This document shows positions 4,797 through 63,256 of a DNA stretch of 64,000 nucleotides, one piece after another (position 1 is the first letter of the stretch; each line of letters opens with the position of its first letter). Where the stretch lies: NCBI GenBank assembly GCA_041661865.1, contig JBAZTO010000004.1, forward strand, positions 614 through 64,613, read 5' to 3'. Source of the DNA: Phycisphaerae bacterium. Lineage in GTDB: Bacteria; Planctomycetota; Phycisphaerae; SM23-33. The position numbers were made by a program, and so were the translations under genes. The notes under the pieces are model-generated. The model was not told the DNA's origin. It made no database searches and saw only the letters and a program-made list of their open reading frames with translations.

Positions 4797-7589
4797 TTGC
4801 CCTCGCAGCGGCGGTGGCCTATGATCGCCGGCGTGAATACAGAGGGCAGCGAGCAACTCGATACCCCCGCGATGCGCCAGTACCGCGGCTTCAAGGAGCA
4901 GTACGGCGACTACCTTCTGCTGTTCCGCATGGGCGACTTCTATGAGATGTTCTACGAGGACGCCAAGACCGCCTCGCGCGTGCTGGGACTGACGCTGACT
5001 TCCCGCTCCAAGGGCCCCACGGCTGTGCCGCTGGCGGGCATTCCCTATCACGCCCTCGACGGCTATCTCGCCCGCATGGTCAAGGCCGGACTGAGGGTGG
5101 CCATCTGCGAACAGGTCGAAGACCCCAAGCAGGCCAGCGGCGTGGTGCGTCGCGACGTGACGCGCCTGGTCACCCCCGGCACGCTGACGGACCAGGCCCT
5201 GCTCGACCAGCGCGAGGGCAATTACCTTGCGGCGATTTTCGCGTTGGGTGGAGGGAAATCCCCCAGCAATGCTGGGGGCTTGAACAACCGCATGCCCTCG
5301 GCGTCGACGGAACAAACCCATGCTCTGAAGCCCCCGGCATCGTCGGGGGATTCTGGGAGCGTTTCGTCACGAATTGCCGGCCGCGATTCGCGCGCTGCCG
5401 AGCCGGCCGGACTGGCATGGGTGGAGCTTTCCAGCGGGACTTTCTGGGCGATGAAGCTCTCCAGCGAGCACCTGCTGGACGAGCTGGTCCGCATCGGCCC
5501 CTCGGAGGTGATCCTGGCTGAGGGCAGCAGCCTGGACGGTCCCACCTTCCGCGCCGCCCTGGGCCAGAGCACTTCCACCGCAGTCACCAGCCGCCCGCCG
5601 TGGGCCTTCGACGCCCGCGCCGCCACCGAGGCCCTCAATCAGCATTTCGGCACAGCCACGCTGGAGGGCTTTGGCTTTGACGGCTGGGATGAATCGCTCT
5701 CGGCGGCCGGGGCGGTCATCGAGTACCTCCGCGAGACGCAGAAAACCGCCCTGGGCCACATCCGTGCCCTGCGGCGTTTCGAGCGGGCCGACCACATGAT
5801 TATCGACGGCAACACGCTCCGCTGCCTGGAGGTCCACCGCACGCTTCGCACCGGCCAGCGGGCCGGCTCGCTGCTGGCCTGCATCGACTGCACCGCCACC
5901 GGCATGGGCGCGCGCCTGCTGGAGCGTTGGCTGACCTTCCCGCTCAACGGCTACAGCGCGATTTTAGCCCGCCAGGACGCCATCGAGGAACTGACCCTTG
6001 ACCGGCCGCGGCTGGGGGAGATCCGCGCGACCCTGGCGGAGATGGCCCAGGTGGACCGCATCGCCTCGGCCATCGCCCTGGCGCGCGTGCGCCCGCGCGA
6101 ACTGCTGGCCCTGGGCGACAGCCTGGCCCTGCTGCCCCGGCTGGCTGCTGCCGTCGCGCCCTGCCAGAGCGATCTCGTGGCGGCGTTGGCCCCCAGGTTG
6201 ACCGGGTTGGAAGAGCCCGCCGCCCGTATCGCCGCCGCCATCGACCGCGACTGCTCGCACGCCATCCGCGACGGCGGGGTCATCGCCAACGGCTTCCACG
6301 AGGAACTCGACCGCCTCCGCCGCATCGGCAGCGACGGGGCGAGCTGGCTGGCGGACTACCAGGCCGCCCAGGCGGCGCGGGTGGGAATCCCCAACCTCAA
6401 GGTCGGCTACAACCGCGTCTTCGGCTACTACATCGAGATCACCAACGCTCACGCCGCAAAGGTTCCCGGCGACTACGTCCGCAAGCAGACGCTCAAGAAC
6501 GCCGAGCGATACATCACCGACGATCTGAAGCGATACGAGTCGGAGGTGCTCTCCGCCGGCGAGCGGGCCAAGGCGCTGGAGGCCCAGCTTTTCGAGCAGC
6601 TCCGCAACGAGTTGTGCGCGCACATCCCGGCCCTGCAAGCCGCCGCCGAGGCCATCGCCACGCTGGACGTGCTGGCGGGGCTGGCGCAACTGGCCGTCGA
6701 ACGCGACTACCGCCGCCCGACCCTCACGCAGGACAACGTGCTGCACATCGTCGATGGGCGGCACCCGGGCCTGGCCCTCCAACTCCGCGAGCAGTTCGTG
6801 CCCAACGACGTCCACATGGACGCCAGGGACAACCGCCTGCTCATCATCACCGGACCCAACATGGCCGGCAAGAGCACCTACATCCGCCAGACCGCCTTGC
6901 TGACGCTGCTGGCCCAGATCGGTAGCTTCATCCCCGCCTCCGAGGCGACCATCGGCCTGGTGGACCGCATCTTCACCCGCGTGGGCGCCGCCGACGAACT
7001 GGCCCGCGGGCTGTCGACCTTCATGCTGGAGATGGTCGAGACGGCCAACATCCTCAACAACGCCACCTCGCGCTCGCTGGTGATTCTCGACGAGGTGGGG
7101 CGCGGCACCAGCACCACCGACGGCCTGGCCCTGGCCTGGGCCATCTGCGAGTACATCGCCCTCCACGCCCGCTGCCGCGCGCTGTTCGCCACCCACTACC
7201 ACGAACTGACCGAACTGGAGAGCCTGCTGGACGGCACGACCAACCTCAACGTGGCTGTCCGCGAATGGGCCGACGAGGTCATCTTCCTCCATAAGATCGT
7301 CCCCGGCGGCACCGACCGCAGCTACGGCGTCCACGTGGCCCGCCTGGCGGGAGTGCCCAAGGAAGTCATCGACCGCGCCCGCGCCATCCTGCCGCAGATC
7401 CAGGCCCACCTGGCCGAGGGGCTGGACATGCCGGCACTGGCGGAGCGGGCACGGGCTGCCGCCGCCCAGATGGAACTCTTCGCCGACCCCGCCACCCGCG
7501 TTGCACGCGAAATCAAGGCCGTCGATCTGGACAACCTGACCCCCCTGGCCGCCCTGGACCTCCTCCGCAAGCTCAAGTCAGATCTGTAA
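4797..7589 (+). CDS. mutS: DNA mismatch repair protein MutS
   Basis: 930-aa ORF; N-terminal mismatch-binding motif LLFRMGDFYEMF; Walker A GPNMAGKST; C-terminal HTH; alternative start at 4821. Confidence 0.95.
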   Translation: MPSQRRWPMIAGVNTEGSEQLDTPAMRQYRGFKEQYGDYLLLFRMGDFYEMFYEDAKTASRVLGLTLTSRSKGPTAVPLAGIPYHALDGYLARMVKAGLRVAICEQVEDPKQASGVVRRDVTRLVTPGTLTDQALLDQREGNYLAAIFALGGGKSPSNAGGLNNRMPSASTEQTHALKPPASSGDSGSVSSRIAGRDSRAAEPAGLAWVELSSGTFWAMKLSSEHLLDELVRIGPSEVILAEGSSLDGPTFRAALGQSTSTAVTSRPPWAFDARAATEALNQHFGTATLEGFGFDGWDESLSAAGAVIEYLRETQKTALGHIRALRRFERADHMIIDGNTLRCLEVHRTLRTGQRAGSLLACIDCTATGMGARLLERWLTFPLNGYSAILARQDAIEELTLDRPRLGEIRATLAEMAQVDRIASAIALARVRPRELLALGDSLALLPRLAAAVAPCQSDLVAALAPRLTGLEEPAARIAAAIDRDCSHAIRDGGVIANGFHEELDRLRRIGSDGASWLADYQAAQAARVGIPNLKVGYNRVFGYYIEITNAHAAKVPGDYVRKQTLKNAERYITDDLKRYESEVLSAGERAKALEAQLFEQLRNELCAHIPALQAAAEAIATLDVLAGLAQLAVERDYRRPTLTQDNVLHIVDGRHPGLALQLREQFVPNDVHMDARDNRLLIITGPNMAGKSTYIRQTALLTLLAQIGSFIPASEATIGLVDRIFTRVGAADELARGLSTFMLEMVETANILNNATSRSLVILDEVGRGTSTTDGLALAWAICEYIALHARCRALFATHYHELTELESLLDGTTNLNVAVREWADEVIFLHKIVPGGTDRSYGVHVARLAGVPKEVIDRARAILPQIQAHLAEGLDMPALAERARAAAAQMELFADPATRVAREIKAVDLDNLTPLAALDLLRKLKSDL

Positions 7590-9343: not shown

Positions 9344-9737
9344 TTTTGAGCTTCCCGACGAGCGGCCGACCAAGATGCCGCTGGTGGGCAAGGTCGCAGC
9401 CGGCCTGCCCATCGAGGCGATGGAGGACCGCCAGACCTTTGACATGGAAGAACTGTTCGAGGGCAGCGGCGAATCGTTCGTGCTCCAGGTGACCGGCAAC
9501 AGCATGATCGACGAGCACATCCAGAACGGCGACTACGTCATCTGCCGCCGCGGGCGCGAACCGCGAAATGGCGAGACGGTGGTGGCCCTGCTCGAAGAGG
9601 GCCAGGCCACGCTGAAGAAGTTCTACCGCGAGAAAGGCCGCATCCGCCTCCAGCCGGCCAACCCCGCCTTCAAACCCATCTACGCCCAGCAGGTGGACGT
9701 CCAGGGCGTCGTCGTCGGAGTGGTGAGGAAAGTCTGA
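9120..9737 (+). CDS. lexA: LexA repressor (SOS regulator, S24 peptidase)
   Basis: N-terminal winged HTH (TPRQLEILRFI...), Ala-Gly cleavage site VAAGLP, S24 catalytic Ser (GNSMID) and Lys (ATLKKF); start at MMRTQ; ORF track begins at 9045. Confidence 0.9.
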   Translation: MMRTQATVTPRQLEILRFIGDFRRQNGFSPTMQEIGDHLHLTKVTAFEHVEALVEKSLLIRGPKHRARSLRVASDFELPDERPTKMPLVGKVAAGLPIEAMEDRQTFDMEELFEGSGESFVLQVTGNSMIDEHIQNGDYVICRRGREPRNGETVVALLEEGQATLKKFYREKGRIRLQPANPAFKPIYAQQVDVQGVVVGVVRKV

Positions 9738-9740
9738 AGC

Positions 9741-9790
9741 CAATGACGAATGACGAAGTGCGAATGACGAATCAATGACGAAACGTCACG
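9741..9790. repeat. GAATGACGAA-family repeat arm (forward orientation) directly after lexA stop
   Basis: caatgacgaatgacgaagtgcgaatgacgaatcaatgacgaaacg; inverted partner at 11368-11420; complete IR copies at 30786-30909 and 34249-34380. Confidence 0.7.
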
Positions 9791-9977: not shown

Positions 9978-11168
9978 GTGAGATCAGAGAATGTAACGAT
10001 ATGGAAGAGAATACAGATCACCCTTCCTCACGCTTTTTGCATCGTGGTTCTGACGGCTACTGTCTTGCCCGCGCTTCATACTGTCGCCGGTTGGCTGCCC
10101 CAAGGTGTAGATGAAGACGGCGATAGAATTGATCCTTCCGTTGCCGTGGCCTTCTTTTCGCTGATTTTTTCGGTTTTGGTCTATTGGTGGCTGATTAGTC
10201 GGCTGCGAAAAGACGCAAAGCAAATTCGCGACCTGCGAACAGCCATTCAAATTGTGGCGTGCGACCAGCATGTCGATTGGCAGTCAGTGCCAGACCTCGA
10301 CACTTACCGCGAATCCCGAAATTTGCCGTTGGCAATGGCACTCGAAACGGCTGGAATCATACGGCCCAAACTCGAACTCGACGAACGCGAACGAGTGATC
10401 GCGTCTTGGCGTGCTCAACTCGATGAACCAGATCACGTGCGGGCTGTCAAAGAGGCACTCGAACACGGTCCATACAGCGGCATGTACTGGTCCTTCCAGA
10501 TTGTCAGCAGCGAATTCCGTAAGCTCATTCATCGTGAAACGCGGGAGCGATTTCCAAGAGAGTGCTACTTTGCAGAGCTTCACATTCTAATAGCGTACCG
10601 CGCAAGCGTGTTCCGGAAAGTGGCGTTTGCTGAAATGGCCAAAGATGTCGGGAATCCTTGTCTTGCGACCTTGATACATGCCATTGCCGAAATGGTGGAC
10701 AAGCCAGGCAATCCAAAGGAGATTGAAGAATCGACGCGTCGCGAACTCAATGAAGCCTTTGCCAGAGAAATAGAGCTTGAGTTACTCGAAGACGAAATCA
10801 AGAACTACGTGAAACTCCACCTAGAAGAAGCTGTGGTTCGCTGGCTAGCGAGATACAAGGATGATGCGGGTACGGTGGCCATATTCGACCGTTGGAAGCG
10901 ACTTCGCGACGGAGTTTCCAAGATGGCCGAATACCTTGGGCAAGCTAGGGGTTTCGCCACCGAAAGGCACGACATGGAGATGAACCTAAAGATTGACCGA
11001 TACGAATGGCTCAAGAATATGCAGGTTGGCAATGGAGCCAGACCTCGGAGTATCACCTGGGAGATGTACGAGGCGGCTAATAGGGGACTTGCCGCCTTCG
11101 CCAAGAGCGAGGCTGCTTTACCGGTCGACGAACCGAACAAGCCGACGTTGCCGCAAGAGCAGGATTAG
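9978..11168 (+). CDS. hypothetical membrane-anchored protein (low-GC cargo gene downstream of lexA)
   Basis: GTG start with AAGAGGGG SD; two N-terminal TM helices then about 300-aa soluble acidic/helical domain; GC clearly lower than neighbours; no recognisable family. Confidence 0.6.
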   Translation: MRSENVTIWKRIQITLPHAFCIVVLTATVLPALHTVAGWLPQGVDEDGDRIDPSVAVAFFSLIFSVLVYWWLISRLRKDAKQIRDLRTAIQIVACDQHVDWQSVPDLDTYRESRNLPLAMALETAGIIRPKLELDERERVIASWRAQLDEPDHVRAVKEALEHGPYSGMYWSFQIVSSEFRKLIHRETRERFPRECYFAELHILIAYRASVFRKVAFAEMAKDVGNPCLATLIHAIAEMVDKPGNPKEIEESTRRELNEAFAREIELELLEDEIKNYVKLHLEEAVVRWLARYKDDAGTVAIFDRWKRLRDGVSKMAEYLGQARGFATERHDMEMNLKIDRYEWLKNMQVGNGARPRSITWEMYEAANRGLAAFAKSEAALPVDEPNKPTLPQEQD

Positions 11169-11169
11169 T

Positions 11170-11420
11170 CCGTTTGCGGAAGGGCATGTTGATCGTGATG
11201 CCGTGGGCGGGTGCCGTGGTCGCGGCGTTTGCGACCACGAGCAGAAACGACGATACCCGCTCGCTTCGCGCTCGCGGCTAGTGCGCCAAGGCGCGGGCCT
11301 TGGTGCCTGCCTGCCGGTAGGCAGGTTGCGCGCCCTACATTCCGCTTAGTTCGTCCCCGCTGTCTTGGTCATTTGTGCTTCGTCATTGATTTGTCATTCG
11401 AGTTTCGTCATTCGTCATTC
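11170..11420. repeat. mosaic cluster of REP-like modules (BIME-like)
   Basis: Contains GGGTGCCGTGGTCGCGGCGTTTGCGACCACG (11210-11240, identical 31-mer at 56963), right half of CTAGCCGCGAGCGC element (11265-11295), CTGCCKGTAGGCAGGTTGCRCGCCCT module (11315-11345, also at 36519-36547) and inverted GAATGACGAA arm (11368-11420). Confidence 0.7.
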
Positions 11421-12277
11421 AAGACGGCGAGTCTTTCCGCCGTACGTTCGATCATCGTCACGCTGACGCGGGGGTGGCCCAGTTGGACGGCGGGCTTGCC
11501 CAGGCCGTGGAAGTCCGAGCCGCCGCTGGGCAGCAGGTTCAGCTTTGTCGCCAGCTCCAGGCACAGCCGCGTCTGCTGCGGCGAGTGATCGGGATGGTAC
11601 ACCTCGATGCCGTCCAGGCCCGCATGGGCCAGATCCCGCAGGACTCGCTCCAGTTGGAGGCGGTTGGCGCAGCGCAGTTGCGAGGGGTGGGCCAGCATCG
11701 CGATCCCGCCGCCGCCGTGAATGGCGTCGATCACCTGTCTCGGCCGCCAGCGATCCTTGGGCACAGCCGCCGGCCCGCCGTCGCCGAGGTAACGGTCGAA
11801 GGCCTCGGCAGGGCAGCGGACATGCCCCTTGGCCGCCAGGGTCTGGGCGATGTGCAGGCGTCCCAGGATTCGTTGGTCGCCGCCGCCGGCCTGGGCCAGC
11901 ACGTCGGCCAGGTCGATCGCCAGTCCCAGCGCCTGGAGCTTGGCGATGATCCTGGGGTTTCGCCCAGCCCGCGCCGCCTGCATCTCCCGCGTCAAGGCCT
12001 GCAGGCTCGGGGCATTCTCATCGATGCCCAAGCCAAGGATGTGCATGGTCCCGCCGGCAAAGGCGGCTGAGACCTCGATGCCGCTGACCAGGCGAAGCTG
12101 GGGAAACTCCGCCGCCGCCTGGCGCGCGGGGGCCAGTCCCTCGGTGGTGTCGTGGTCGGTCAGCGCGATAACGGCCAGCCCCGCGGCGTCGGCCTCGGCC
12201 AGCAGACGCTGGGGGCTGACCGAGCCGTCGGAGGCGGTGCTGTGGGTATGCAGATCGACCCAGCGACGGGCGCTCAT
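11408..12277 (-). CDS. PHP-domain metal-dependent phosphoesterase (TrpH/YciV-like)
   Basis: [12 protein letters not shown]-terminal PHP motif; start ATG overlaps cysK stop as ATGA (12274-12277); last codons and stop codon lie inside the GAATGACGAA repeat arm. Confidence 0.8.
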
Positions 12278-13218
12278 CGCAGGTGCTCGAACAATGGCGT
12301 GGACAGGTAGCGCTCGCCGAAACTGGGCACAATGACGACGATGCACTTGCCGGCGGACTCGGGGCGATGGGCGACCTGGTGGGCCGCGGCCAGGGCGGCG
12401 CCCGAAGAAATGCCGACGAACAGGCCCGCGTCCTTGCAGGCGCGGCGGGCCCAGTCGATGGCCTCATCCTGGTCGATCGCGACCACCTCGTCGATGGCCT
12501 GGAGGTTGAGAACCTTGGGCACGAAGCCGGCCCCGATGCCCTGGATCTTGTGGGGCCCGGGCGTGAGGGCCTGTCCCGCCAGCGTCTGGGTGAGCACGGG
12601 GCTTTGTTTGGGTTCCACGGCGACGGCCCTGAAGCCCGCCCGCCGCTGCCGGATCACCTCGCTGATGCCTGTGATGGTGCCCCCGGTCCCGACGGCGGAG
12701 ACGACGACGTCCACCTTGCCATCGGTTCCGGTCCATATTTCCTCAGCCGTGGTGCGGCGGTGAATCTCGGGGTTGGCGGGGTTCTCGAATTGCTGCGGCA
12801 CGAAGCTGTTGGGCACGACGGAGGCCAATTCCCGGGCCTTCTCGATGGCCCCGGCCATGCCGCTGGCTGCGGGGGTCAGCGAAACCTCGGCCCCCAGGGC
12901 GCGGAGCACCTTGCGCCGCTCGATGCTCATGGAGTCGGGCATGGTGACGATGCAGCGGTAGCCGCGCACGGCGCAGACGAAGGCCAGCGCGATGCCCGTG
13001 TTGCCGCTGGTGGGCTCGATAATGGTCGAGCCTTCCTTGATCGCTCCGCTCCGCTCGCCCGCATCGATCATCGCCAGGCCGATGCGGTCCTTCACCGAGG
13101 CCATGGGGTTGAGGCTTTCCATCTTGGCCAGCACGGTGGCCTTGGAGCCGATGAGCTTGTGGATGCGAACCAGCGGGGTGTTGCCGATGGTCTGCGAGAT
13201 ATCGTCGAAGATGGGCAT
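12274..13218 (-). CDS. cysK: cysteine synthase A (O-acetylserine sulfhydrylase)
   Basis: 314-aa; PLP lysine motif SVKDR, GNTG, GTGGT loops typical of CysK. Confidence 0.92.
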
Positions 13219-13351: not shown

Positions 13352-13422
13352 GGTGCCACTGCTGCGGTGTTTGCAGCAGTGTTGAAGCTATGCACGGCTG
13401 CACACGACGCAGCCGTGGCACC
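13352..13422. repeat. 71-bp structured repeat: GGTGCCAC - hairpin - hairpin - GTGGCACC
   Basis: ggtgccactgctgcggtgtttgcagcagtg...cggctgcacacgacgcagccgtggcacc; near-identical copy at 32419-32489 and architectural variant at 32640-32712. Confidence 0.65.
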
Positions 13423-13454: not shown

Positions 13455-14114
13455 TTATCGAGGCACGGGCTGGTTGGCGCTTCGGAAGGGGGCGGCGGGT
13501 TTGGTGCGAGCCGGGAGGATGATTTTCTCGGTGGGGGCGAAGATGACGCCCTTGGCCTCCATCCGCCGGAAGGCCATCTCGATCTTCTCGCCCGGCAGCG
13601 CCAGGACCGCGTCAGAGGCCAGGATCACGCCGAAGCCGCGGCTGCGGAGCCCGACGGCTGCCTCCACGATGCCGTGTGCCAGGCCCGCGCCGCAGATCAC
13701 AAAGGTGCCGCCGCCCAGTTCGGTAATCATCCGCTCAGCCCGGCTGTGGGCGAAGATGTCGGTGACTCGCTTTTCAAAGATCACCTGGCGATATTGACTG
13801 AACAGATCCCTGGGCAGGTCCGTCACGTTCCGAAGGCCAAAGTCGATGTGACGCGGCAGGATCGTCCTAGCCAACCTGAGTTCGCCCCGCGTGCCCTCGA
13901 CACAGTGGGGCGTTGCGCCCAATGGCCCAGGCCGGTTGGGCTGCACGCGCAAGACAGTGCTCACCACCGGGATGTGACCGGCGCGCGACCAGGCAAAGAG
14001 TCGCCTGATCTGCCTGGCTATCGCGGGAGAGAGTTCGGGGGAGTAAAAACTCCCACCCGATTCAAAGAAGTCGCATTGAACTTCAACGTCCAACAGGATT
14101 CGCTCGTATACCAT
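13455..14114 (-). CDS. isochorismatase-family (cysteine) hydrolase
   Basis: N-terminal LLDVEVQCDFF (DxQxDF) motif, catalytic Cys region FVICGAGLAHG. Confidence 0.8.
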   Translation of the reverse strand: MVYERILLDVEVQCDFFESGGSFYSPELSPAIARQIRRLFAWSRAGHIPVVSTVLRVQPNRPGPLGATPHCVEGTRGELRLARTILPRHIDFGLRNVTDLPRDLFSQYRQVIFEKRVTDIFAHSRAERMITELGGGTFVICGAGLAHGIVEAAVGLRSRGFGVILASDAVLALPGEKIEMAFRRMEAKGVIFAPTEKIILPARTKPAAPFRSANQPVPR

Positions 14115-15085: not shown

Positions 15086-15128
15086 GGTGGCACAGGCGCC
15101 TCGGGTAGCACAGGCGTCTCGCCTGTGC
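15086..15128. repeat. CACAGGCG-nGA-CGCCTGTG palindromic REP (two adjacent copies) upstream of prfB
   Basis: ggtggcacaggcgcctcgg + gtagcacaggcgtctcgcctgtgc; same palindrome at 19131-19156, 62947-62972 and in the 63018-63158 tandem. Confidence 0.6.
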
Positions 15129-16335: not shown

Positions 16336-16351
16336 CAGGTATCTCGACGCA

Positions 16352-16429
16352 CTAGCCGCGAGCGCAAAGCGAGCGGACTATTTCCTCTTCTGAACCGACA
16401 ATCCCCGCTCGCTTTGCGCTCGCGGCTAG
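16352..16429. repeat. 78-bp inverted-repeat element CTAGCCGCGAGCGCAAAGCGAGCGG - loop - CCGCTCGCTTTGCGCTCGCGGCTAG, 17 nt after prfB stop
   Basis: perfect 25-bp arms, loop ACTATTTCCTCTTCTGAACCGACAATCC; second full copy 21712-21779 after trpB; partial copies at 11265-11295 and 62836-62862. Confidence 0.7.
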
Positions 16430-16545
16430 TGCGTCAATGGCGGGCGATGCGGTGTGCGCGATCAAGAACCAGCGAGCCGTCTGAGGGGCTTGGGATCGCA
16501 TTGATGCGTTGACCCTGTCGGAATGTGCGGTTAAGCTGGCCGGCC

Positions 16546-17444: not shown

Positions 17445-17474
17445 GTAGGGCGTGCAACTTGTTGCACGCGGAAT
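17445..17474. repeat. GCGTGCAAC-TT-GTTGCACGC palindromic REP
   Basis: gtagggcgtgcaacttgttgcacgcggaat; copies at 35286-35313, 36487-36512 (inverted), variant 19086-19112. Confidence 0.6.
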
Positions 17475-19085: not shown

Positions 19086-19156
19086 TAGGGCGTGCTTACC
19101 AGCACGCGGAATGCGGTTGTGCCAGGACAGCCACAGGCGGGACGCCTGTGGTACCC
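19086..19156. repeat. two REP palindromes (GCGTGC-TTACCA-GCACGC variant and CCACAGGCG-GGA-CGCCTGTGG)
   Basis: tagggcgtgcttaccagcacgcggaat ... ccacaggcgggacgcctgtggtaccc between convergent permease and NRDE genes. Confidence 0.6.
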
Positions 19157-19932: not shown

Positions 19933-19952
19933 CGCCGCTCTCCAAACAGAAT

Positions 19953-20065
19953 CACCAAGACCACAGAGAGCACAAAGATCACAAAGCACGCCAAATCAGG
20001 AACAGAAAGGCTGAGGTTCGTGCGGTTGCCTTTCTTTGAGGTCTTTGTGGCCTTCGTGGTTGTTC
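19953..20065. repeat. 9-bp-periodic inverted-repeat element (CACRRAGNN)x4 / spacer / (NNCTYYGTG)x3
   Basis: caccaagac cacagagag cacaaagat cacaaagca ... gtctttgtggccttcgtggttg; spacer contains AAAGGC/GCCTTT hairpin; lies in divergent NRDE/trpB promoter region. Confidence 0.65.
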
Positions 20066-20213
20066 AAACGAAAAAAAGCCCTGCAAAATCCGCGTCAGCC
20101 ATTATCATAGCAGGGACGTTCGTATCTTGCGACGGTCCCCGGCCTGGCGGGATGCGGGCAAGACGTGAAATTGCCGTGTGCCTCAGCCGGTCAGATCGGA
20201 CTTGGAGATTGTA

Positions 20214-21605: not shown

Positions 21606-21711
21606 TTGAACAACAGTGCGAAGTGCGTGGTGCGTAGTGCGAAGAACAACAACAGTGCGAAGTGCGTGGTGCGAAGAACAGCGGCGCCGCGCCAAGACGA
21701 ACTAGCCGCGA

Positions 21712-21779
21712 GCGCAAAGCGAGCGGATTATTTCCTCTTTTGAAACGACCACACCCGCTCGCTTTGCGCTCGCGGCTAG
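21712..21779. repeat. second full copy of the CTAGCCGCGAGCGCAAAGCGAGCGG inverted-repeat element, downstream of trpB
   Basis: same 25-bp arms and similar loop (ATTATTTCCTCTTTTGAAACGACCACAC); preceded by 24-bp direct repeat caacagtgcgaagtgcgtggtgcg x2 (21611-21671). Confidence 0.7.
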
Positions 21780-21863
21780 TTTGCCTTGGCACAGATCATG
21801 GTCGCAAACGCCGCGGGCCAGGGCACTCAGCCCTCTTCCCGGCTACTGACCACAGACTACCGG

Positions 21864-22497: not shown

Positions 22498-22800
22498 GTC
22501 GTACCCCTTCTGGCGATAAAACAATGATCTCTTTTGGAATGCTTAATACGGCAAAATAGTATACTATTACATACTTTATGTCAAGTATATAGTACATTTA
22601 TACGAATAAAATTGTTTGTGAATATAACTTGTTCCCAAGATAGGAGTTACAACCTAGAATCCCCCGACTAAGGACTACGGATTACCAAGAGATGCAACCC
22701 AATTGAGGATTGATAGTAGTTTCGCATGTCCGCAAACCTGCCGCAGTCATCGGACACAAGTTGCCACCTTGCCTGTGTCTGCTTACACAACGAGATGTTG

Positions 22801-22844
22801 CTGTTCTTTGTGGTCTCTGTGGCCTTCGTGATCTTCGTGATTTC
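22801..22844. repeat. 9-bp-periodic repeat arm (CTYYGTG orientation) overlapping rmuC stop codon
   Basis: ctgttctttgtggtctctgtggccttcgtgatcttcgtgatttc. Confidence 0.55.
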
Positions 22845-23937: not shown

Positions 23938-24099
23938 AAAGCACGGAGAACACGGAGACCGCAGAGAGCACGGAGCAAACCATCGTCGAGAAAAAGAAAC
24001 ACCCCGCGAAAGGCGGGGTGCTGGATTGCTCTTTGGGTCTTGTTCAGACTCTTGGACTGTTCTCTGTGGCCTTTGTGTTCTCTGTGATCTTTGTGATGG
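23938..24099. repeat. 9-bp-periodic inverted-repeat element flanking the rpoD terminator
   Basis: cacggagaa cacggagac cgcagagag cacggagca [spacer with terminator] ctgttctctgtggcctttgtgttctctgtgatctttgtgatgg. Confidence 0.65.
23986..24020 (-). terminator. rho-independent terminator of rpoD
   Basis: hairpin CACCCCGC-GAAAG-GCGGGGTG followed on minus strand by TTTCTTTTTCTC. Confidence 0.6.
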
Positions 24100-27698: not shown

Positions 27699-27715
27699 AG
27701 CACGAGATGAATCTT

Positions 27716-27935
27716 ATCACAGAGGGCACGGAGATCACAAAGATCACGGAGAATGGCAAACAGGGAAAGCACGAAGCCAAGGTACGACGAATCGTGCAAA
27801 GGTCAGGAACCGGACACTGCAAAGCCACCAGGCTCGTTGTTCTTTTTTCTGGTTTTTTCTGGCTTTCCGATAGGCACTATTCTCTCTTCAGCTTCTCTTT
27901 GTGATCTCTGTGTCCTTCGTGAGCTTTGTGATAGC
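27716..27935. repeat. 9-bp-periodic inverted-repeat element between dnaG start and rnhA end
   Basis: cacagaggg cacggagat cacaaagat cacggagaa [130-bp spacer with T-rich run] ctctttgtgatctctgtgtccttcgtgagctttgtgatagc. Confidence 0.65.
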
Positions 27936-30780: not shown

Positions 30781-30785
30781 TAGAA

Positions 30786-30909
30786 ACAATGACGAATGAC
30801 GAAATGCAAATGACGAATCAATACTCGAATGCTCGAATATCCCAAACAGAATCCCGTGGACCCTGTTGGGTTATTCGTCATTGACTCGTCATTCGAGTTT
30901 CGTCATTTG
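30786..30909. repeat. complete about 125-bp inverted-repeat element of the GAATGACGAA family between gfo and mnmE
   Basis: acaatgacgaatgacgaaatgcaaatgacgaatcaatactcgaatgctcgaatat [central cccaaacagaatcccgtggaccctgttggg] ttattcgtcattgactcgtcattcgagtttcgtcatttg. Confidence 0.7.
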
Positions 30910-30926
30910 TATTGGGTGGTCTCTTC

Positions 30927-32345: not shown

Positions 32346-32418
32346 AAGTCAGCCTCTTGGAGTGTGCGATTCGATGCGGTACTCTCAACCGGTCGAAGAA
32401 CGATGCAGACAATGGATC

Positions 32419-32489
32419 GGTGCCACTGCCGCGGTGTTTGCAGCGGTGTCGGCCCCAAGCACGGCTGCACACGACGCAGCCGTGGCACC
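32419..32489. repeat. second copy of 71-bp GGTGCCAC-hairpin-hairpin-GTGGCACC element
   Basis: ggtgccactgccgcggtgtttgcagcggtg...cggctgcacacgacgcagccgtggcacc. Confidence 0.65.
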
Positions 32490-32639
32490 CATCGGATCAG
32501 ATGTTTGCTGATATGCAGGTGAACCCTTGAAACATCATCGAGCGGCGTTGATCGTCGCAGCCATCCTGGTCCTGGCCGGCGCAGCCTGCCTGGCGGTGCG
32601 GCTGCATCACTGCGGCGCTGGCAGGCCGAGTGCTTGCAG

Positions 32640-32712
32640 GGTGCCACCCCCAAACTCCGTTTGGGGGTGTGAAACGTTGGAACACCCCCAAGACAAACTT
32701 GGGGGTGGCACC
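32640..32712. repeat. architectural variant of the GGTGCCAC...GTGGCACC element with two different internal hairpins
   Basis: ggtgccac CCCCAAAC-tccg-GTTTGGGGG ... CACCCCCAAG-acaaa-CTTGGGGGTG gcacc; lies inside the predicted N-terminal extension of ORF 32527..33354. Confidence 0.55.
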
Positions 32713-32745
32713 TCCGAATTGCCGGCTGCCACATCAAATTGCGCC

Positions 32746-33354
32746 GTGGCCTGGCTGCTGATCCTGCCCCTGGGCGCGCTGGTCACCTCGATCATCCGCA
32801 ACGTCGTCGGTGTGCAGACCTATGGCACGCTGACGCCCAGCCTGCTGGCCATCAGCTTTCTCCAGGCCGATTGGCTCAGCGGCGGGCTCGTCTTTGGCCT
32901 GGTGATGGGCCTGGGCCTCGGCGGCCGGGCGTTGCTGGGCAGGCTCAAGCTCCTGATGGGCCCGCGCCTGGGCCTGGTGCTGACCTTCGTCGTGCTGGGC
33001 CTGGCCGGTGCGCTGAACCTGGCCGGCCGGCGCGGTTACCATACCGACCCGGCGGCCCTCATCCTGCCGCTGGTGGTGCTGACGATGATCGTCGAGCGTT
33101 TCTATATTTCCATCGAGGAAAACGGCCTGGGCCTCTCGCTGCGGCTGCTGGCGGGCACGCTGGGCGTCGGCGCCCTGTGCCTGGCCCTGCTGCGGTGGCG
33201 ATGGCTGGGACAATTGGCTGTGAGCTATCCCGAGGCGCAGCTCTTCGTGGCCGCGGCGCTGGTCTGCGTGGGCCGCTACAGCGGCTACCGGCTGACCGAG
33301 CTGTGGCGATTCCGCGAACTGGCTGCGCCGAAGCAACTGGGAGAAGACCGGTGA
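32746..33354 (+). CDS. polytopic membrane protein (6-7 TM) partnered with the ATP-grasp ligase
   Basis: ORF track starts at 32527 but 32527-32745 is occupied by REP hairpins; in-frame GTG at 32746 (VAWLLILPLG...) is the preferred start; stop overlaps next gene as GTGA. Confidence 0.6.
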   Translation: MAWLLILPLGALVTSIIRNVVGVQTYGTLTPSLLAISFLQADWLSGGLVFGLVMGLGLGGRALLGRLKLLMGPRLGLVLTFVVLGLAGALNLAGRRGYHTDPAALILPLVVLTMIVERFYISIEENGLGLSLRLLAGTLGVGALCLALLRWRWLGQLAVSYPEAQLFVAAALVCVGRYSGYRLTELWRFRELAAPKQLGEDR

Positions 33355-34289
33355 GCGCGCCCGCGCGTAACGGCTGGCTGCCCGCCTGGCCGGGGCATCT
33401 GCGGCGGGCTGGCGTGCTGGGCATGAACGCCCGCAACACCCAACTGCTCGTGGCGCTGAACCCCAGGCGGCTCTACGACCTGGTCAACGACAAGATCCAG
33501 ACCAAGGAACTGTGCCTCCGCGAGGCGATCCCCACGCCGCGAACCTACGCGATCCTCGACCACCCCGCGCAGGTGCCCGCGGCGGCGGAGATCATGCGGC
33601 AGGCCGGCCAGTTCGTGGTCAAGCCCTCGCGCGGCAGCGGGGGCCGCGGTGTGCTGGTCATCGCCGGCAGCGAAGAGGGCGACTTCCGCACCTCCAGCGG
33701 CGTCGCGATGAGCTGGGACGAGATGCGGTACCACCTGCTGATGACGCTGGCCGGCGCGTTCTCCATCGGCGGCCGGGCCGACCGCGTGATCATCGAGCAG
33801 CGCGTCAGCCGCCACGCCGCCTTTGAAGGCCTGGCCGTCAACGGCACGCCGGATGTGCGACTGATCGTCTATCGTGGCAGCGCCATCATGGGCATGCTTC
33901 GCCTGCCGACGCTGGCCTCGGGCGGCCGGGCCAACCTCCACCAGGGCGCGCTGGGGCTGGGCCTGGACATCGCCACGGGCGTGTCCACCGGCGGCTTCTG
34001 CCGCGACCGCAGCGTGGAAGTTCATCCCGACACCGGGGCGGCCCTGACCGGCGTGGCTGTGCCGCGATGGAAGGAAATGCTGGCCGTGTCGGAGAAACTG
34101 TCAGCCGCGGTGGGCCTGGGCTACCTGGGCGTGGACATCGTGCTGGGCGAGGAGGGCCCGCTGGTCCTGGAGGCCAACGGCCGGCCGGGACTGTCCATCC
34201 AGATCGCCAACCGCTGCGGATTGATGACGCGGATCGCCGAAGCCGAGAATCGAATGACGAATGACGAAACTCGAATGATAAATCAATGA
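33351..34289 (+). CDS. ATP-grasp alpha-L-glutamate ligase-like protein (RimK-related)
   Basis: ATP-grasp motifs VVKPSRGSGGRGV, LGYLGVDIVL, LEANGRPG; GTG start overlapping upstream stop; last 13 codons ([13 protein letters not shown]) are encoded by the GAATGACGAA repeat arm. Confidence 0.8.
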   Translation: MSAPARNGWLPAWPGHLRRAGVLGMNARNTQLLVALNPRRLYDLVNDKIQTKELCLREAIPTPRTYAILDHPAQVPAAAEIMRQAGQFVVKPSRGSGGRGVLVIAGSEEGDFRTSSGVAMSWDEMRYHLLMTLAGAFSIGGRADRVIIEQRVSRHAAFEGLAVNGTPDVRLIVYRGSAIMGMLRLPTLASGGRANLHQGALGLGLDIATGVSTGGFCRDRSVEVHPDTGAALTGVAVPRWKEMLAVSEKLSAAVGLGYLGVDIVLGEEGPLVLEANGRPGLSIQIANRCGLMTRIAEAENRMTNDETRMINQ

Positions 34290-34380
34290 CGAATAACCCC
34301 ATACGTTTCGCGTGTTTCTGTTTGGGGCATTCGAGCATTCGAGTATTGATTCGTCATTCGAGTTTCGTCATTCGTCATTA
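34249..34380. repeat. complete inverted-repeat element of the GAATGACGAA family overlapping the 3' end of the ATP-grasp gene
   Basis: atcgaatgacgaatgacgaaactcgaatgataaatcaatgacgaataacc ... cattcgagcattcgagtattgattcgtcattcgagtttcgtcattcgtcatta. Confidence 0.7.
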
Positions 34381-35252: not shown

Positions 35253-35313
35253 TGCGAAAGTGCGAAGCGGCAGGTCGTAGCGAAGTAGGGCGTGCAACTT
35301 GTTGCACGCAGGA
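35253..35313. repeat. composite REP: GTGCGAAAGTGCGAAG module + GTAGGGCGTGCAACTTGTTGCACGC palindrome
   Basis: immediately after TSUP stop; inverted counterparts at 36487-36575 on the other side of the methyltransferase gene. Confidence 0.6.
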
Positions 35314-36426: not shown

Positions 36427-36575
36427 AAGGCGTGCAACGAGTCTGCCACGGCGGCCAGGGTTCTGCACGCGGAAGAAACAATTCCCCGCGTGCAACGAGT
36501 TGCACGCCCTACTACCAACTGCCTGTAGGCAGGTTGCACGCCCTGCCAATTTCGCACTTCGCACTTTCGCACTGC
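36427..36575. repeat. cluster of REP modules inverted relative to 35253-35313
   Basis: aaggcgtgcaac[insert]gcacgcggaag; cgcgtgcaacgagttgcacgccctac; ctgcctgtaggcaggttgcacgccctgcc; aatttcgcacttcgcactttcgcactgc. Confidence 0.6.
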
Positions 36576-56259: not shown

Positions 56260-56355
56260 CCCCGCCCTGCCTATCCGTCCTGCCTAGAATGTCGCACCAG
56301 CGAATCGGCCGCCACGGCATTGGGGCGGGGGTGCGGCTGGCCAGGGAGCACAAAA

Positions 56356-56631
56356 ATGACCATCTGGAGCGACTTGTTCCTGGGGCTTGTGGAGGTGGGT
56401 AAGGCCCACTACTGCCAGGCCGTCCACAAGGTCCGAAGCGTCGGGCCGGCGATCCTGCTGACCGTGATGGCGGCCATCGTGACGCTGTGGGGCCTGGGCC
56501 TGCTGGTGGCGTCGGTGTTCATCGGCGTCGCAAGTTGCATGGGATGCGTCTGGGCCGCGGTCATTTCGGCGATGCTCGCCTTTGCCATCGCCTCGGTCCT
56601 GGCCCTGATCGCCGTGCGAGTCCGCCGGTAA
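56356..56631 (+). CDS. small membrane protein, holin-like
   Basis: 91-aa from internal Met, two TM helices. Confidence 0.4.
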   Translation: MTIWSDLFLGLVEVGKAHYCQAVHKVRSVGPAILLTVMAAIVTLWGLGLLVASVFIGVASCMGCVWAAVISAMLAFAIASVLALIAVRVRR

Positions 56632-56962: not shown

Positions 56963-56993
56963 GGGTGCCGTGGTCGCGGCGTTTGCGACCACG
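56963..56993. repeat. GGGTGCC-GTGGTCGC-ggcgttt-GCGACCAC palindromic REP (identical 31-mer to 11210-11240)
   Basis: followed by GGCCCTGTTT...AAACAGGGCC hairpin (57000-57045). Confidence 0.55.
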
Positions 56994-57198: not shown

Positions 57199-57774
57199 AT
57201 GGCGACGACTTTGGGGAAGTTTCGATGGGCGTCAGCCTTACGCGGACTGGCCGCAATTGCGTTCGGCATACTGGCACTCACCTGGCCGGCTATCACCGTG
57301 ATAGTGCTGCTGGCCCTGTTCGGGGCTTATGCCATTCTGGACGGTCTTTTTGCCCTGGTGGCTTCGTTTCAAAGACGCACGCGAGTGTTTCGTGAAGGAT
57401 GGCTGGTGCCGCTGGTGGGCATATTGAGCATCGCGATCGGCGTGCTCGCGTTCGCCCGGCCGGGGATCACCGCGATCGTGCTGCTGCTGGTGATTGCGGC
57501 TCGCGCCATCTTCGCGGGAGTGCTGGAGATTGCCGCAGCCATCCACTACCACAAGAGGATTCGGGGCGAGTGGCTCCTGGCGCTGGGCGGGGGGCTGTCG
57601 GTGGCCTTCGGCCTGCTGGTGTTCGCCTACCCGCTGGAAGGCGCCCTGGCGGCCCTGTGGCTGATCGGCGTGTATGCGATCCTGGTCGGGTCGGCGCAGA
57701 TCGTTTTCGCCCTGTCGGCCAAGACGTTGGTCGAAGAGATCGAGCGGCCCACCAGCCCACCGCTGCCGGCATAA
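57199..57774 (+). CDS. HdeD-family (DUF308) acid-resistance membrane protein
   Basis: repeated GxxxIxxGxxxI helices, 191 aa, 6 TM. Confidence 0.8.
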   Translation: MATTLGKFRWASALRGLAAIAFGILALTWPAITVIVLLALFGAYAILDGLFALVASFQRRTRVFREGWLVPLVGILSIAIGVLAFARPGITAIVLLLVIAARAIFAGVLEIAAAIHYHKRIRGEWLLALGGGLSVAFGLLVFAYPLEGALAALWLIGVYAILVGSAQIVFALSAKTLVEEIERPTSPPLPA

Positions 57775-62775: not shown

Positions 62776-62946
62776 TACCTGGTTATCGACTTCCGGTTTC
62801 TTGATTTTTCGATTTCAGCCGCCGCGGGTGCCCAGATCAAACCAGCCGTGAGCGCAAAGCGAGCGGAAATCCTGGCGACACTTTCCGGCCTCGCGAGCAA
62901 AACAGTCTACAACGTCGCCCGGCGGTTTGCACTCTCATTGCGTTCT

Positions 62947-62972
62947 GGTAGCACAGGCGTCCCGCCTGTGCT
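62947..62972. repeat. inverted single copy of the CACAGGCG palindromic unit
   Basis: ggtagcacaggcgtcccgcctgtgct. Confidence 0.6.
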
Positions 62973-63017
62973 CTGGAACCCTATCGGCGATTGTTTGTAG
63001 TCTTACGGCCTTACACC

Positions 63018-63158
63018 CACAGGCGAGACGCCTGTGCTACCACACTCACAGGCGAGACGCCTGTGCTACCACACTCACAGGCGAGACGCCTGTGCTACCA
63101 CACTCACAGGCGAGACGCCTGTGCTACCACACTCACAGGCGAGACGCCTGTGCTACCC
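63018..63158. repeat. tandem array of five 29-bp units CACAGGCGAGACGCCTGTGCTACCACACT (no spacers)
   Basis: exact 29-nt period at 63018, 63047, 63076, 63105, 63134 (last unit truncated); each unit contains the CACAGGCG-AGA-CGCCTGTG palindrome. Confidence 0.8.
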
Positions 63159-63224: not shown

Positions 63225-63256
63225 ACGTGGTCGCAAACGCCGCGACCACGGCACCT
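63225..63256. repeat. CGTGGTCGC-aaacgcc-GCGACCACG palindromic REP
   Basis: cacgtggtcgcaaacgccgcgaccacggcacc; preceded by CAGGGGCGC...GCGCCCCTG hairpin (63169-63202). Confidence 0.5.

Follow-up and report, generated by a model that had tools for sequence, protein, structure and literature searches.

Our data indicate, with a probability that we put at roughly 87%, that the repeats described here belong to a REP/REPIN family of a RAYT clade of Planctomycetota and that this family has the non-canonical tag GGTGCC. They were found in the 64-kb stretch of DNA that was analyzed in full (hereafter, the window), which belongs to a Phycisphaerae metagenome-assembled genome (100% identity to its protein P0001). 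Each REP unit consists of the 5' tag (G)GGTGCC followed directly by a stem of 8-14 bp, and the 71-73 bp forms are head-to-head REP doublets of the REPIN/BIME-like kind. Instead of the GT[AG]G motif located 0-2 nt 5' of the hairpin foot, by which REPs are usually recognized (PMC6006769, PMC3733652), these units carry (G)GGTGCC. The other hallmarks of REPs that we looked for were found, i.e., a short hairpin palindrome, dispersed and mostly extragenic copies, singletons together with inverted doublets, and repeats that flank RAYT genes.

A search for GGTGCCAC-N55/57-GTGGCACC returned exactly three matches in the window, at 13352-13422, 32419-32489, and 32640-32712, all on the plus strand. This recovers the exact coordinates of the three copies listed in the earlier note, and 100 dinucleotide-preserving shuffles gave 0 matches to the pattern GGTGCCAC-N(40-70)-GTGGCACC. 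Copy 1 (13352..13422, plus strand) is an intergenic doublet with its tags outside. Its unit a (13352-13381, plus strand) reads GGTGCC-ACTGCTGC-GGTGTTT-GCAGCAGT-G and its unit b (13393-13422, minus strand) reads GGTGCC-ACGGCTGC-GTCGTGT-GCAGCCGT-G, with a spacer of 13 nt when the last stem base is counted as the end of each unit. The element sits between two minus-strand genes, 33 nt past the stop of an isochorismatase-family gene (13455-14114) and 134 nt ahead of the start of a gene for a PLP-dependent enzyme (12274-13218). Copy 2 (32419..32489, plus strand) lies past the mnmE stop (32345) and ahead of the probable TTG start (32527) of a 7TM gene, and its unit a (32419-32448, plus strand) has one C-A mismatch and one G-T pair. 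These two copies had been called near-identical, and they do share 89% identity over 71 nt; beyond the element borders their flanks are dissimilar, except for GGATC(G) at the left. Copy 3 (32640..32712, plus strand) is a doublet of a different body type and lies in frame inside the 7TM gene. Its first unit (32640-32669, plus strand) is GGTGCC-ACCCCCAAAC-TCC-GTTTGGGGGT-G, and its second unit (32683-32712, minus strand) is GGTGCC-ACCCCCAAG-TTTGT-CTTGGGGGT-G. As had been observed before, it keeps GGTGCCAC/GTGGCACC and differs in its hairpins: only these termini are common to copy 3 and copies 1 and 2, and the hairpins CACCCCCAAAC/GTTTGGGGGTG and CACCCCCAAG/CTTGGGGGTG are its own.

The anatomy of the doublets alters how these elements should be read. 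The earlier note had described a closing inverted repeat around two internal hairpins and, hence, a Y-shaped architecture. Both the repeat and the hairpins are present, but the "closing stem" is two facing copies of the 5' tag and no separately evolving helix. Indeed, hairpin 2 of the 71-bp elements, when read on the opposite strand, follows the same GGTGCC plan as hairpin 1, and therefore each "Y" is composed of two inverted tagged hairpin units with their tags outside. Nor did folding predict a Y. For each of the three copies, the minimum-energy structure was one long, imperfect hairpin (-28.3, -24.4, and -27.4 kcal/mol as DNA for copies 1, 2, and 3, with z-scores of -5.5, -2.9, and -5.3, respectively), since the two units of an element have near-equal arms in inverted order.

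The commonest unit type has a conserved 7-nt loop, GGYGTTT. One plan is common to three single palindromes and to hairpin 1 of copies 1 and 2: GGTGCC is followed by an 8-bp stem, the GGYGTTT loop, the return arm, and a G that comes after the hairpin and pairs with the final C of the tag. Units in the window measure 30 nt with a 9-bp stem. The singles depart from these hairpins in the stem (GTGGTCGC versus ACTGCTGC) and agree with them in the tag and the loop. The first single unit (11210..11239, plus strand; GGTGCC-GTGGTCGC-GGCGTTT-GCGACCAC-G) starts 42 nt past the end of a candidate ORF (9978-11168, plus strand); the second (56964..56993, plus strand) is intergenic between 56320-56631 and 57199-57774 (both plus strand); the third (63226..63255, minus strand) lies 42 nt past the groEL stop (63297) and upstream of dnaJ. 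All three are identical over 30 nt (GGTGCCGTGGTCGCGGCGTTTGCGACCACG). The palindromes at 11210 and 56963 (here 56964) had been suspected to be related to the larger elements, which is borne out by their shared unit plan. The single at 63226-63255 was not on the earlier list, and neither was a decayed unit at 21797..21827 (minus strand; GAGTGCC-CTGGCCCGC-GGCGTTT-GCGACCATG; 21.7 bits, E 0.015), which retains the loop and has a degraded tag and stem. Collectively, the 64-kb window contains 10 units, arranged as 3 doublets and 4 singletons; 8 units are intergenic and 2, both in copy 3, intragenic. A covariance model built from the unit alignment scored the 7 GGYGTTT-type window units at 45-51 bits and gave the two halves of copy 3 weak scores of about 16.6 bits; it was also this model that detected the decayed unit.

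The host of copy 3 is a 7TM_transglut (PF14402) gene at 32527..33354 (plus strand). TTG 32527 is most likely its start, since the N-terminal transmembrane helix of the homologues aligns with residues 1-27 of the ORF that begins there; R5, L14, G18, R25, and LP at 65-66 are conserved or invariant among the homologues. The public annotation gives a protein of 202 aa that starts at GTG 32746. It appears to be 73 N-terminal codons short (32527-32745) and to omit the first transmembrane helix, likely because the REP doublet sits in between. Copy 3 encodes residues 38-62 (RVPPPNSVWGCETLEHPQDKLGGGT), within a variable linker between the first two transmembrane helices, and the linkers of relatives are 10-25 residues shorter. 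Judging from frame and homology, translation would proceed through copy 3 for about 24-25 residues. Intragenic REP dimers that encode 20-30 aa have been documented (PMC3733652).

The GGTGCC unit family is present in many Planctomycetota genome bins and metagenome contigs. When one genome per species was scanned with the pattern GGTGCC-N6-GCGGYGTTTGC, in which the stem is left free, at least 114 stretches matched. Among those listed, matches with a full 9-bp stem came almost entirely from Planctomycetota and were spread over at least 12 bins with labels such as Phycisphaerae, Planctomycetales, and Planctomycetaceae. Most listed matches outside this phylum had short stems of 2-5 bp; a few of them reached a greater length once G-T pairing was tolerated. 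The window and 28 Planctomycetota loci together yielded 66 units made of GGTGCC and a hairpin, with at least 7 unrelated hairpin bodies behind the same tag. Those with the GGYGTTT loop are ACACCTGC, ACGGCTGC, and GTGGYYGC; a 14-bp body (ATAGGTTGAGCCGC) has a conserved T-T mismatch, an 11-bp body (ATGGTCAGCCC) was found behind the tag as well, and bin CAYQJH also has a doublet of the copy-3 body (ACCCCCAAG; CCCCCAAG type). When metagenome contigs were scanned in turn with a stricter unit pattern, 120 loci (545 kb in total) with 192 further units were obtained, which brings the total to 258. In these metagenome loci we counted 35 head-to-head doublets, no tail-to-tail doublets, and 110 singles; single-tag half-elements outnumber doublets, which are most often 71 bp long with 13 nt between their units. 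Every unit of both sets has GGTGCC, with GTGC adjoining the stem, and a G precedes the tag in 141 of the 192 units from metagenome loci.

The earlier note had suggested looking for compensatory changes, and these do occur. Across an aligned set of 23 distinct 30-nt units, 97.6% of the cells are paired and both sides change in 6 of the 9 stem pairs, a covariation score that was reached by 0 of 500 shuffles; sliding the 3' partner by 1-3 columns lowers pairing to 16-54%. The conservation of tag and loop in this alignment is partly imposed by the search pattern, whereas the complementarity of the free positions is not. This covariation reflects differences between REP subfamilies and does not tell RNA hairpins from DNA hairpins. 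Similarly, families of tagged REPs, which consist of an unpaired 5' tag and a hairpin, differ from one another by complementary stem changes (Di Nocera et al. 2013, PMC3733652).

Compensatory stem changes and strong folds would also fit small structured RNAs or cis-regulatory RNA motifs that function as a Y-shaped three-way junction; the earlier note had considered a small structured RNA family with a Y-shaped architecture. Most copies are intergenic and probably transcribed, and the singletons at 11210 and 63255 both lie 42 nt past an upstream co-oriented ORF. Yet folding predicts one long hairpin, what is conserved is a 5' tag present in both orientations, the units flank RAYT genes, and copy 3 falls within coding sequence. 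No Rfam family was matched: at gathering thresholds, Rfam 15 yielded only a tRNA in the window, and the best sub-threshold match on an element (32416-32492) covers part of Salmonella isrG at 20.8 bits against a gathering threshold of 100, probably owing to a REP-dimer-like double hairpin in the isrG model. In addition, single units show no orientation bias relative to neighboring genes (13 co-oriented versus 15 opposed, from crude gene calls), which argues for selection on DNA and against a strand-specific RNA. Near-identical copies within a genome, with stems that differ between genomes, are the pattern left by amplification. We therefore regard an RNA family as very improbable. Hammerhead and other ribozymes, tRNA-like structures, integron attC sites, CRISPR repeats, and intrinsic terminators were also considered and rejected, as no conserved cores, Rfam matches, or T-runs were found.

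The reading as a REP family is supported by an association with RAYT genes. The earlier note had proposed to look for these elsewhere in the genome; the association was found in five loci of related Planctomycetota and not in the window itself. Using tblastn, phmmer, and a Y1-transposase profile, we detected no RAYT or other Y1 transposase in the 64-kb window or in the first 35 Planctomycetota loci, so that the source genome is linked to a RAYT by sequence family only. One weak transposase match among the loci examined (L077) proved to be a spurious antisense frame, and a gene flanked by REP clusters in another (L088) is sugar-isomerase-like and not a RAYT. Among the 120 metagenome loci, 3 have a Y1 transposase adjoining the repeats. 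The one in L162 is a 186-aa protein that matches Pfam Y1_Tnp and scores 100.6 bits against the NCBIfam model NF047646, "REP-associated tyrosine transposase" (cut-off 80), compared with 16.7 bits against the IS200 model (cut-off 55). One GGTGCC unit lies 8 nt past the stop of this gene and four tandem units lie upstream of it, with the tags distal to the gene. The upstream stretch (6050-6280 of that locus) is made of four tandem 55-nt repeats, each with a unit and a truncated ACGGCACC tag remnant. L125 and L200 have a similar layout, in which inverted GGTGCC units flank the RAYT, and it is probably shared by L003, a contig that starts with a frameshifted RAYT N-terminus and has three tagged units ahead of it, one of the copy-3 body type.

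The three RAYT loci that were found through the REP pattern are subject to ascertainment bias, which is offset by two loci found from the protein. The L162 protein has more than 4,000 homologues; among the 120 matches listed, all those whose source names an organism are from Planctomycetota, and the lineages listed comprise Phycisphaerae, Pirellulales, Thermoguttaceae, and Rubinisphaera italica. Two of these homologues, P0159 from bin DAOVZK (L242) and P0209 from the isolate Rubinisphaera italica (L244), both have the REPtron layout. In the former, GGTGCC-GTGGTTGC-GGTTTTT-GCAACCAC-G is located 24 nt upstream of the RAYT and its inverse 10 nt downstream; in the latter, the hairpin GGTGCC-ATGCTTGC-(13-nt loop)-GCAAGCAT-G stands on one side of the RAYT and its inverse on the other. 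Stems and loops thus differ between L242 and L244 while the tag is unchanged, which makes the tag the feature that is tied to the RAYT clade. In total, five independent loci (L162, L125, L200, L242, and L244) have a RAYT flanked by inverted GGTGCC-tagged hairpins with the tags outward, which is the classical REPtron arrangement.

The planctomycete RAYTs keep the catalytic motifs, namely the HUH motif (PEHVH), RFWQ, and the tyrosine motif YIHxNPV. They share about 27% identity with E. coli RayT and have about 15 extra residues ahead of RFW. E. coli RayT reads GTAG through E100, H101, and R104 (PMC6006769); in place of its EHA-IRN segment, the planctomycete proteins have QRGGGYDRNLR. Such differences fit a changed tag, which falls short of proof.

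A second Y1 family, of about 225 aa (P0120 and P0125, matched by a consensus sequence), was set aside as a different family of the "TIRYT" type with GGGGATAAGTYCA terminal inverted repeats. It is abundant in Phycisphaerae and Pirellulales (e.g., L119 4508-5194 and L121 6001-6678), and L121 has extra copies of the GGGGATAAGTYCA repeat downstream of the Y1 gene. A GGTGCC-tagged hairpin 70 nt downstream of the gene in L119 was treated as coincidental, since it lies outside the GGGGATAAGTYCA repeats.

The distribution of the units, together with one empty-site comparison, suggests that they are mobile. Two relatives (L117 and L118), whose 7TM proteins share 58-69% identity with the one in the window, a distance that qualifies the comparison, keep the mnmE-7TM-ATPgrasp gene order and have no copy 2; their mnmE-7TM spacers measure 71 and 89 nt, versus 181 nt in the window. 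The DNA alignment with these relatives is informative only at the mnmE end and at a promoter-like box, and the linker is too diverged to give exact insertion boundaries. This box, of the TAYACTYTY type (TAYACTYTYRACC; window 32360-32385), lies 30-45 nt past the mnmE stop, is conserved in three genomes, and could represent the -10 element of the 7TM promoter; copy 2 falls between it and the 7TM start codon. Many near-identical 71-bp doublets with unrelated flanks were found in the metagenome loci, such as a dispersed doublet of the form GGTGCC-GTGGTTGC...GCAACCAC-GGCACC, whose spacer is conserved; the ACTGCTGC/ACGGCTGC doublet type of the window recurs in L167, L184, and L210.

Dispersed copies of 71-73 bp with inverted termini might also be taken for MITEs, with GGTGCCAC/GTGGCACC as terminal inverted repeats for a DDE transposase. 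This is hardly credible, as a search for target-site duplications at the 35 doublets of the metagenome loci found none, single-tag half-elements are commoner than doublets, different internal bodies stand under one tag, and the adjoining gene encodes a Y1/HUH RAYT and not a DDE transposase.

Alternatively, the elements could be REPs by origin that are now kept for a role in the host, as RNA 3'-end stabilizers, terminators, or sites for nucleoid proteins or gyrase. REPs elsewhere in bacteria have such roles (PMC3733652, PMC6006769), the copies lie mostly between co-directional or convergent genes, and the GGYGTTT loop is conserved across many genomes. RAYT recognition would explain this loop conservation equally well, though; in addition, the operon is undisturbed in the relatives that lack copy 2, and the hairpins are not followed by a T-run. 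We consider retention for a host role unlikely as the main explanation, if somewhat less so than an RNA family, and return to a REP/REPIN family maintained by a RAYT.

Under this preferred reading, the RAYT, an HUH/Y1 nuclease, would act at the replication fork, bind units that have folded on single-stranded DNA, and read the 5' tag GGTGCC as a guide, much as E. coli RayT does with GTAG. It would then cleave and rejoin nearby, whereby doublets could be copied to new sites and maintained without target-site duplications. Binding and cleavage of GGTGCC hairpins are postulated here by homology with E. coli RayT and IS200/IS605 TnpA (PMC6006769). Copies that are transcribed may secondarily serve as RNA hairpins, in 3'-end protection or termination. 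The several body types under one tag may be served by one RAYT or by several.

Other repeats accompany the GGTGCC units in the window. A classical GTAG REP family, GTAGG-GCGTGCAA-CTTG-TTGCACGC, occurs at 17450-17469, 35290-35309, and 36488-36507 (two on the plus strand and one inverted). A second GTAG-type family, GGTAG-CACAGGCG-TCT-CGCCTGTG, occurs at 15109-15127, 19132-19150, and 62952-62970, and the GGTAG-CACAGGCG family also forms a tandem array of five 29-nt units at 63013-63157 in the groEL-dnaJ interval, next to the GGTGCC unit at 63226-63255. Given that GTAG REPs are also found in the window, this genome can be called REP-rich. An 85-bp inverted-repeat element is present at 16346-16430 and 21696-21780 (92% identical), with 26-nt arms (ACTAGCCGCGAGCGCAAAGCGAGCGG and its complement) and a spacer of about 30 nt. 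Isolated ACTAGCCGCGAGCGCAAAGCGAGCGG arms make up half copies, one at 11257-11281 and one at 62842-62866, and the element perhaps represents a repeat type of its own with terminal inverted repeats. Short oligomer repeats that are richer in A/T, of the AATGACGAA type and the 9-nt CACAAAGAT / TTCGTGATC type, recur at the edges of genes, in many cases flanking an intergenic region on either side (9736-9782, 11354-11419, 30782-30910, and 34247-34379, and also 19951-20069, 22797-22841, 23940-24097, and 27707-27932).

We lean, by a small measure, toward the view that GGTGCC palindromes are a third class of REP tag beside GTAG and CGTC, served by a Planctomycetota-wide RAYT clade with a remodelled guide-reading segment. 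If so, they would provide a natural second specificity for how HUH/Y1 enzymes read a guide sequence, with one doublet tolerated in frame inside a membrane protein in the source genome. A RAYT clade with a different and longer tag offers a comparison for how REP-associated transposases choose their DNA, and the cultured Rubinisphaera italica carries the arrangement. For annotation, GGTGCC REPs account for unusual hairpins between genes in Planctomycetota bins and for the apparently misplaced start of at least one gene, the 7TM gene; a REP finder that depends on GT[AG]G will overlook them. A literature search of incomplete coverage found no description of GGTGCC palindromes in Planctomycetes, and a prior description is possible.

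Several known systems resemble the one described here. IS200/IS605 elements likewise combine a Y1/HUH enzyme with subterminal hairpins, a guide 5' of the hairpin foot, single-stranded DNA, and no target duplication (PMC6006769). Their hairpins are direct, whereas those described here are inverted, and the transposase gene here is not carried within multiple copies. Rickettsia palindromic elements (RPE) and intragenic REPs recall copy 3 in that they lie in frame within a gene and in a variable loop, of which a single case, with predicted translation, was seen here.

The GTAG and CGTC super-families of tagged REPs (PMC3733652) share the tag-plus-hairpin plan, several families per tag, and a predominance of head-to-head dimers. 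In these, too, a genome may host several families, and the dimers may fold as one large stem-loop (PMC3733652). The GGTGCC tag falls outside the GTAG and CGTC consensus sequences and outside the degenerate forms listed in two surveys (GYAG, GYRG, GTRG, GTMG, and GTGG; PMC3733652, PMC6006769). As between CGTC REPs and GGTGCC, only the GGTGCC class has an associated tyrosine transposase.

The REPINs of Pseudomonas fluorescens (Bertels and Rainey 2011, PMC3116915; PMC3337134) match the doublets described here in having two inverted REPs, a short spacer, and one long hairpin. In both cases it is likely the doublet that replicates, single copies have the look of remnants, and there is an association with RAYTs; the two differ in phylum, tag, and RAYT clade. 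Finally, the REP/BIME elements of E. coli with their RayT (TnpA-REP) have the same short palindrome with a conserved unpaired 5' tag and the same combination of single units and inverted doublets, and inverted REPs flank one RAYT gene there as well. The two systems differ in the tag, which is GTAG in E. coli and GGTGCC here, and the planctomycete units have a conserved loop of 7 nt.
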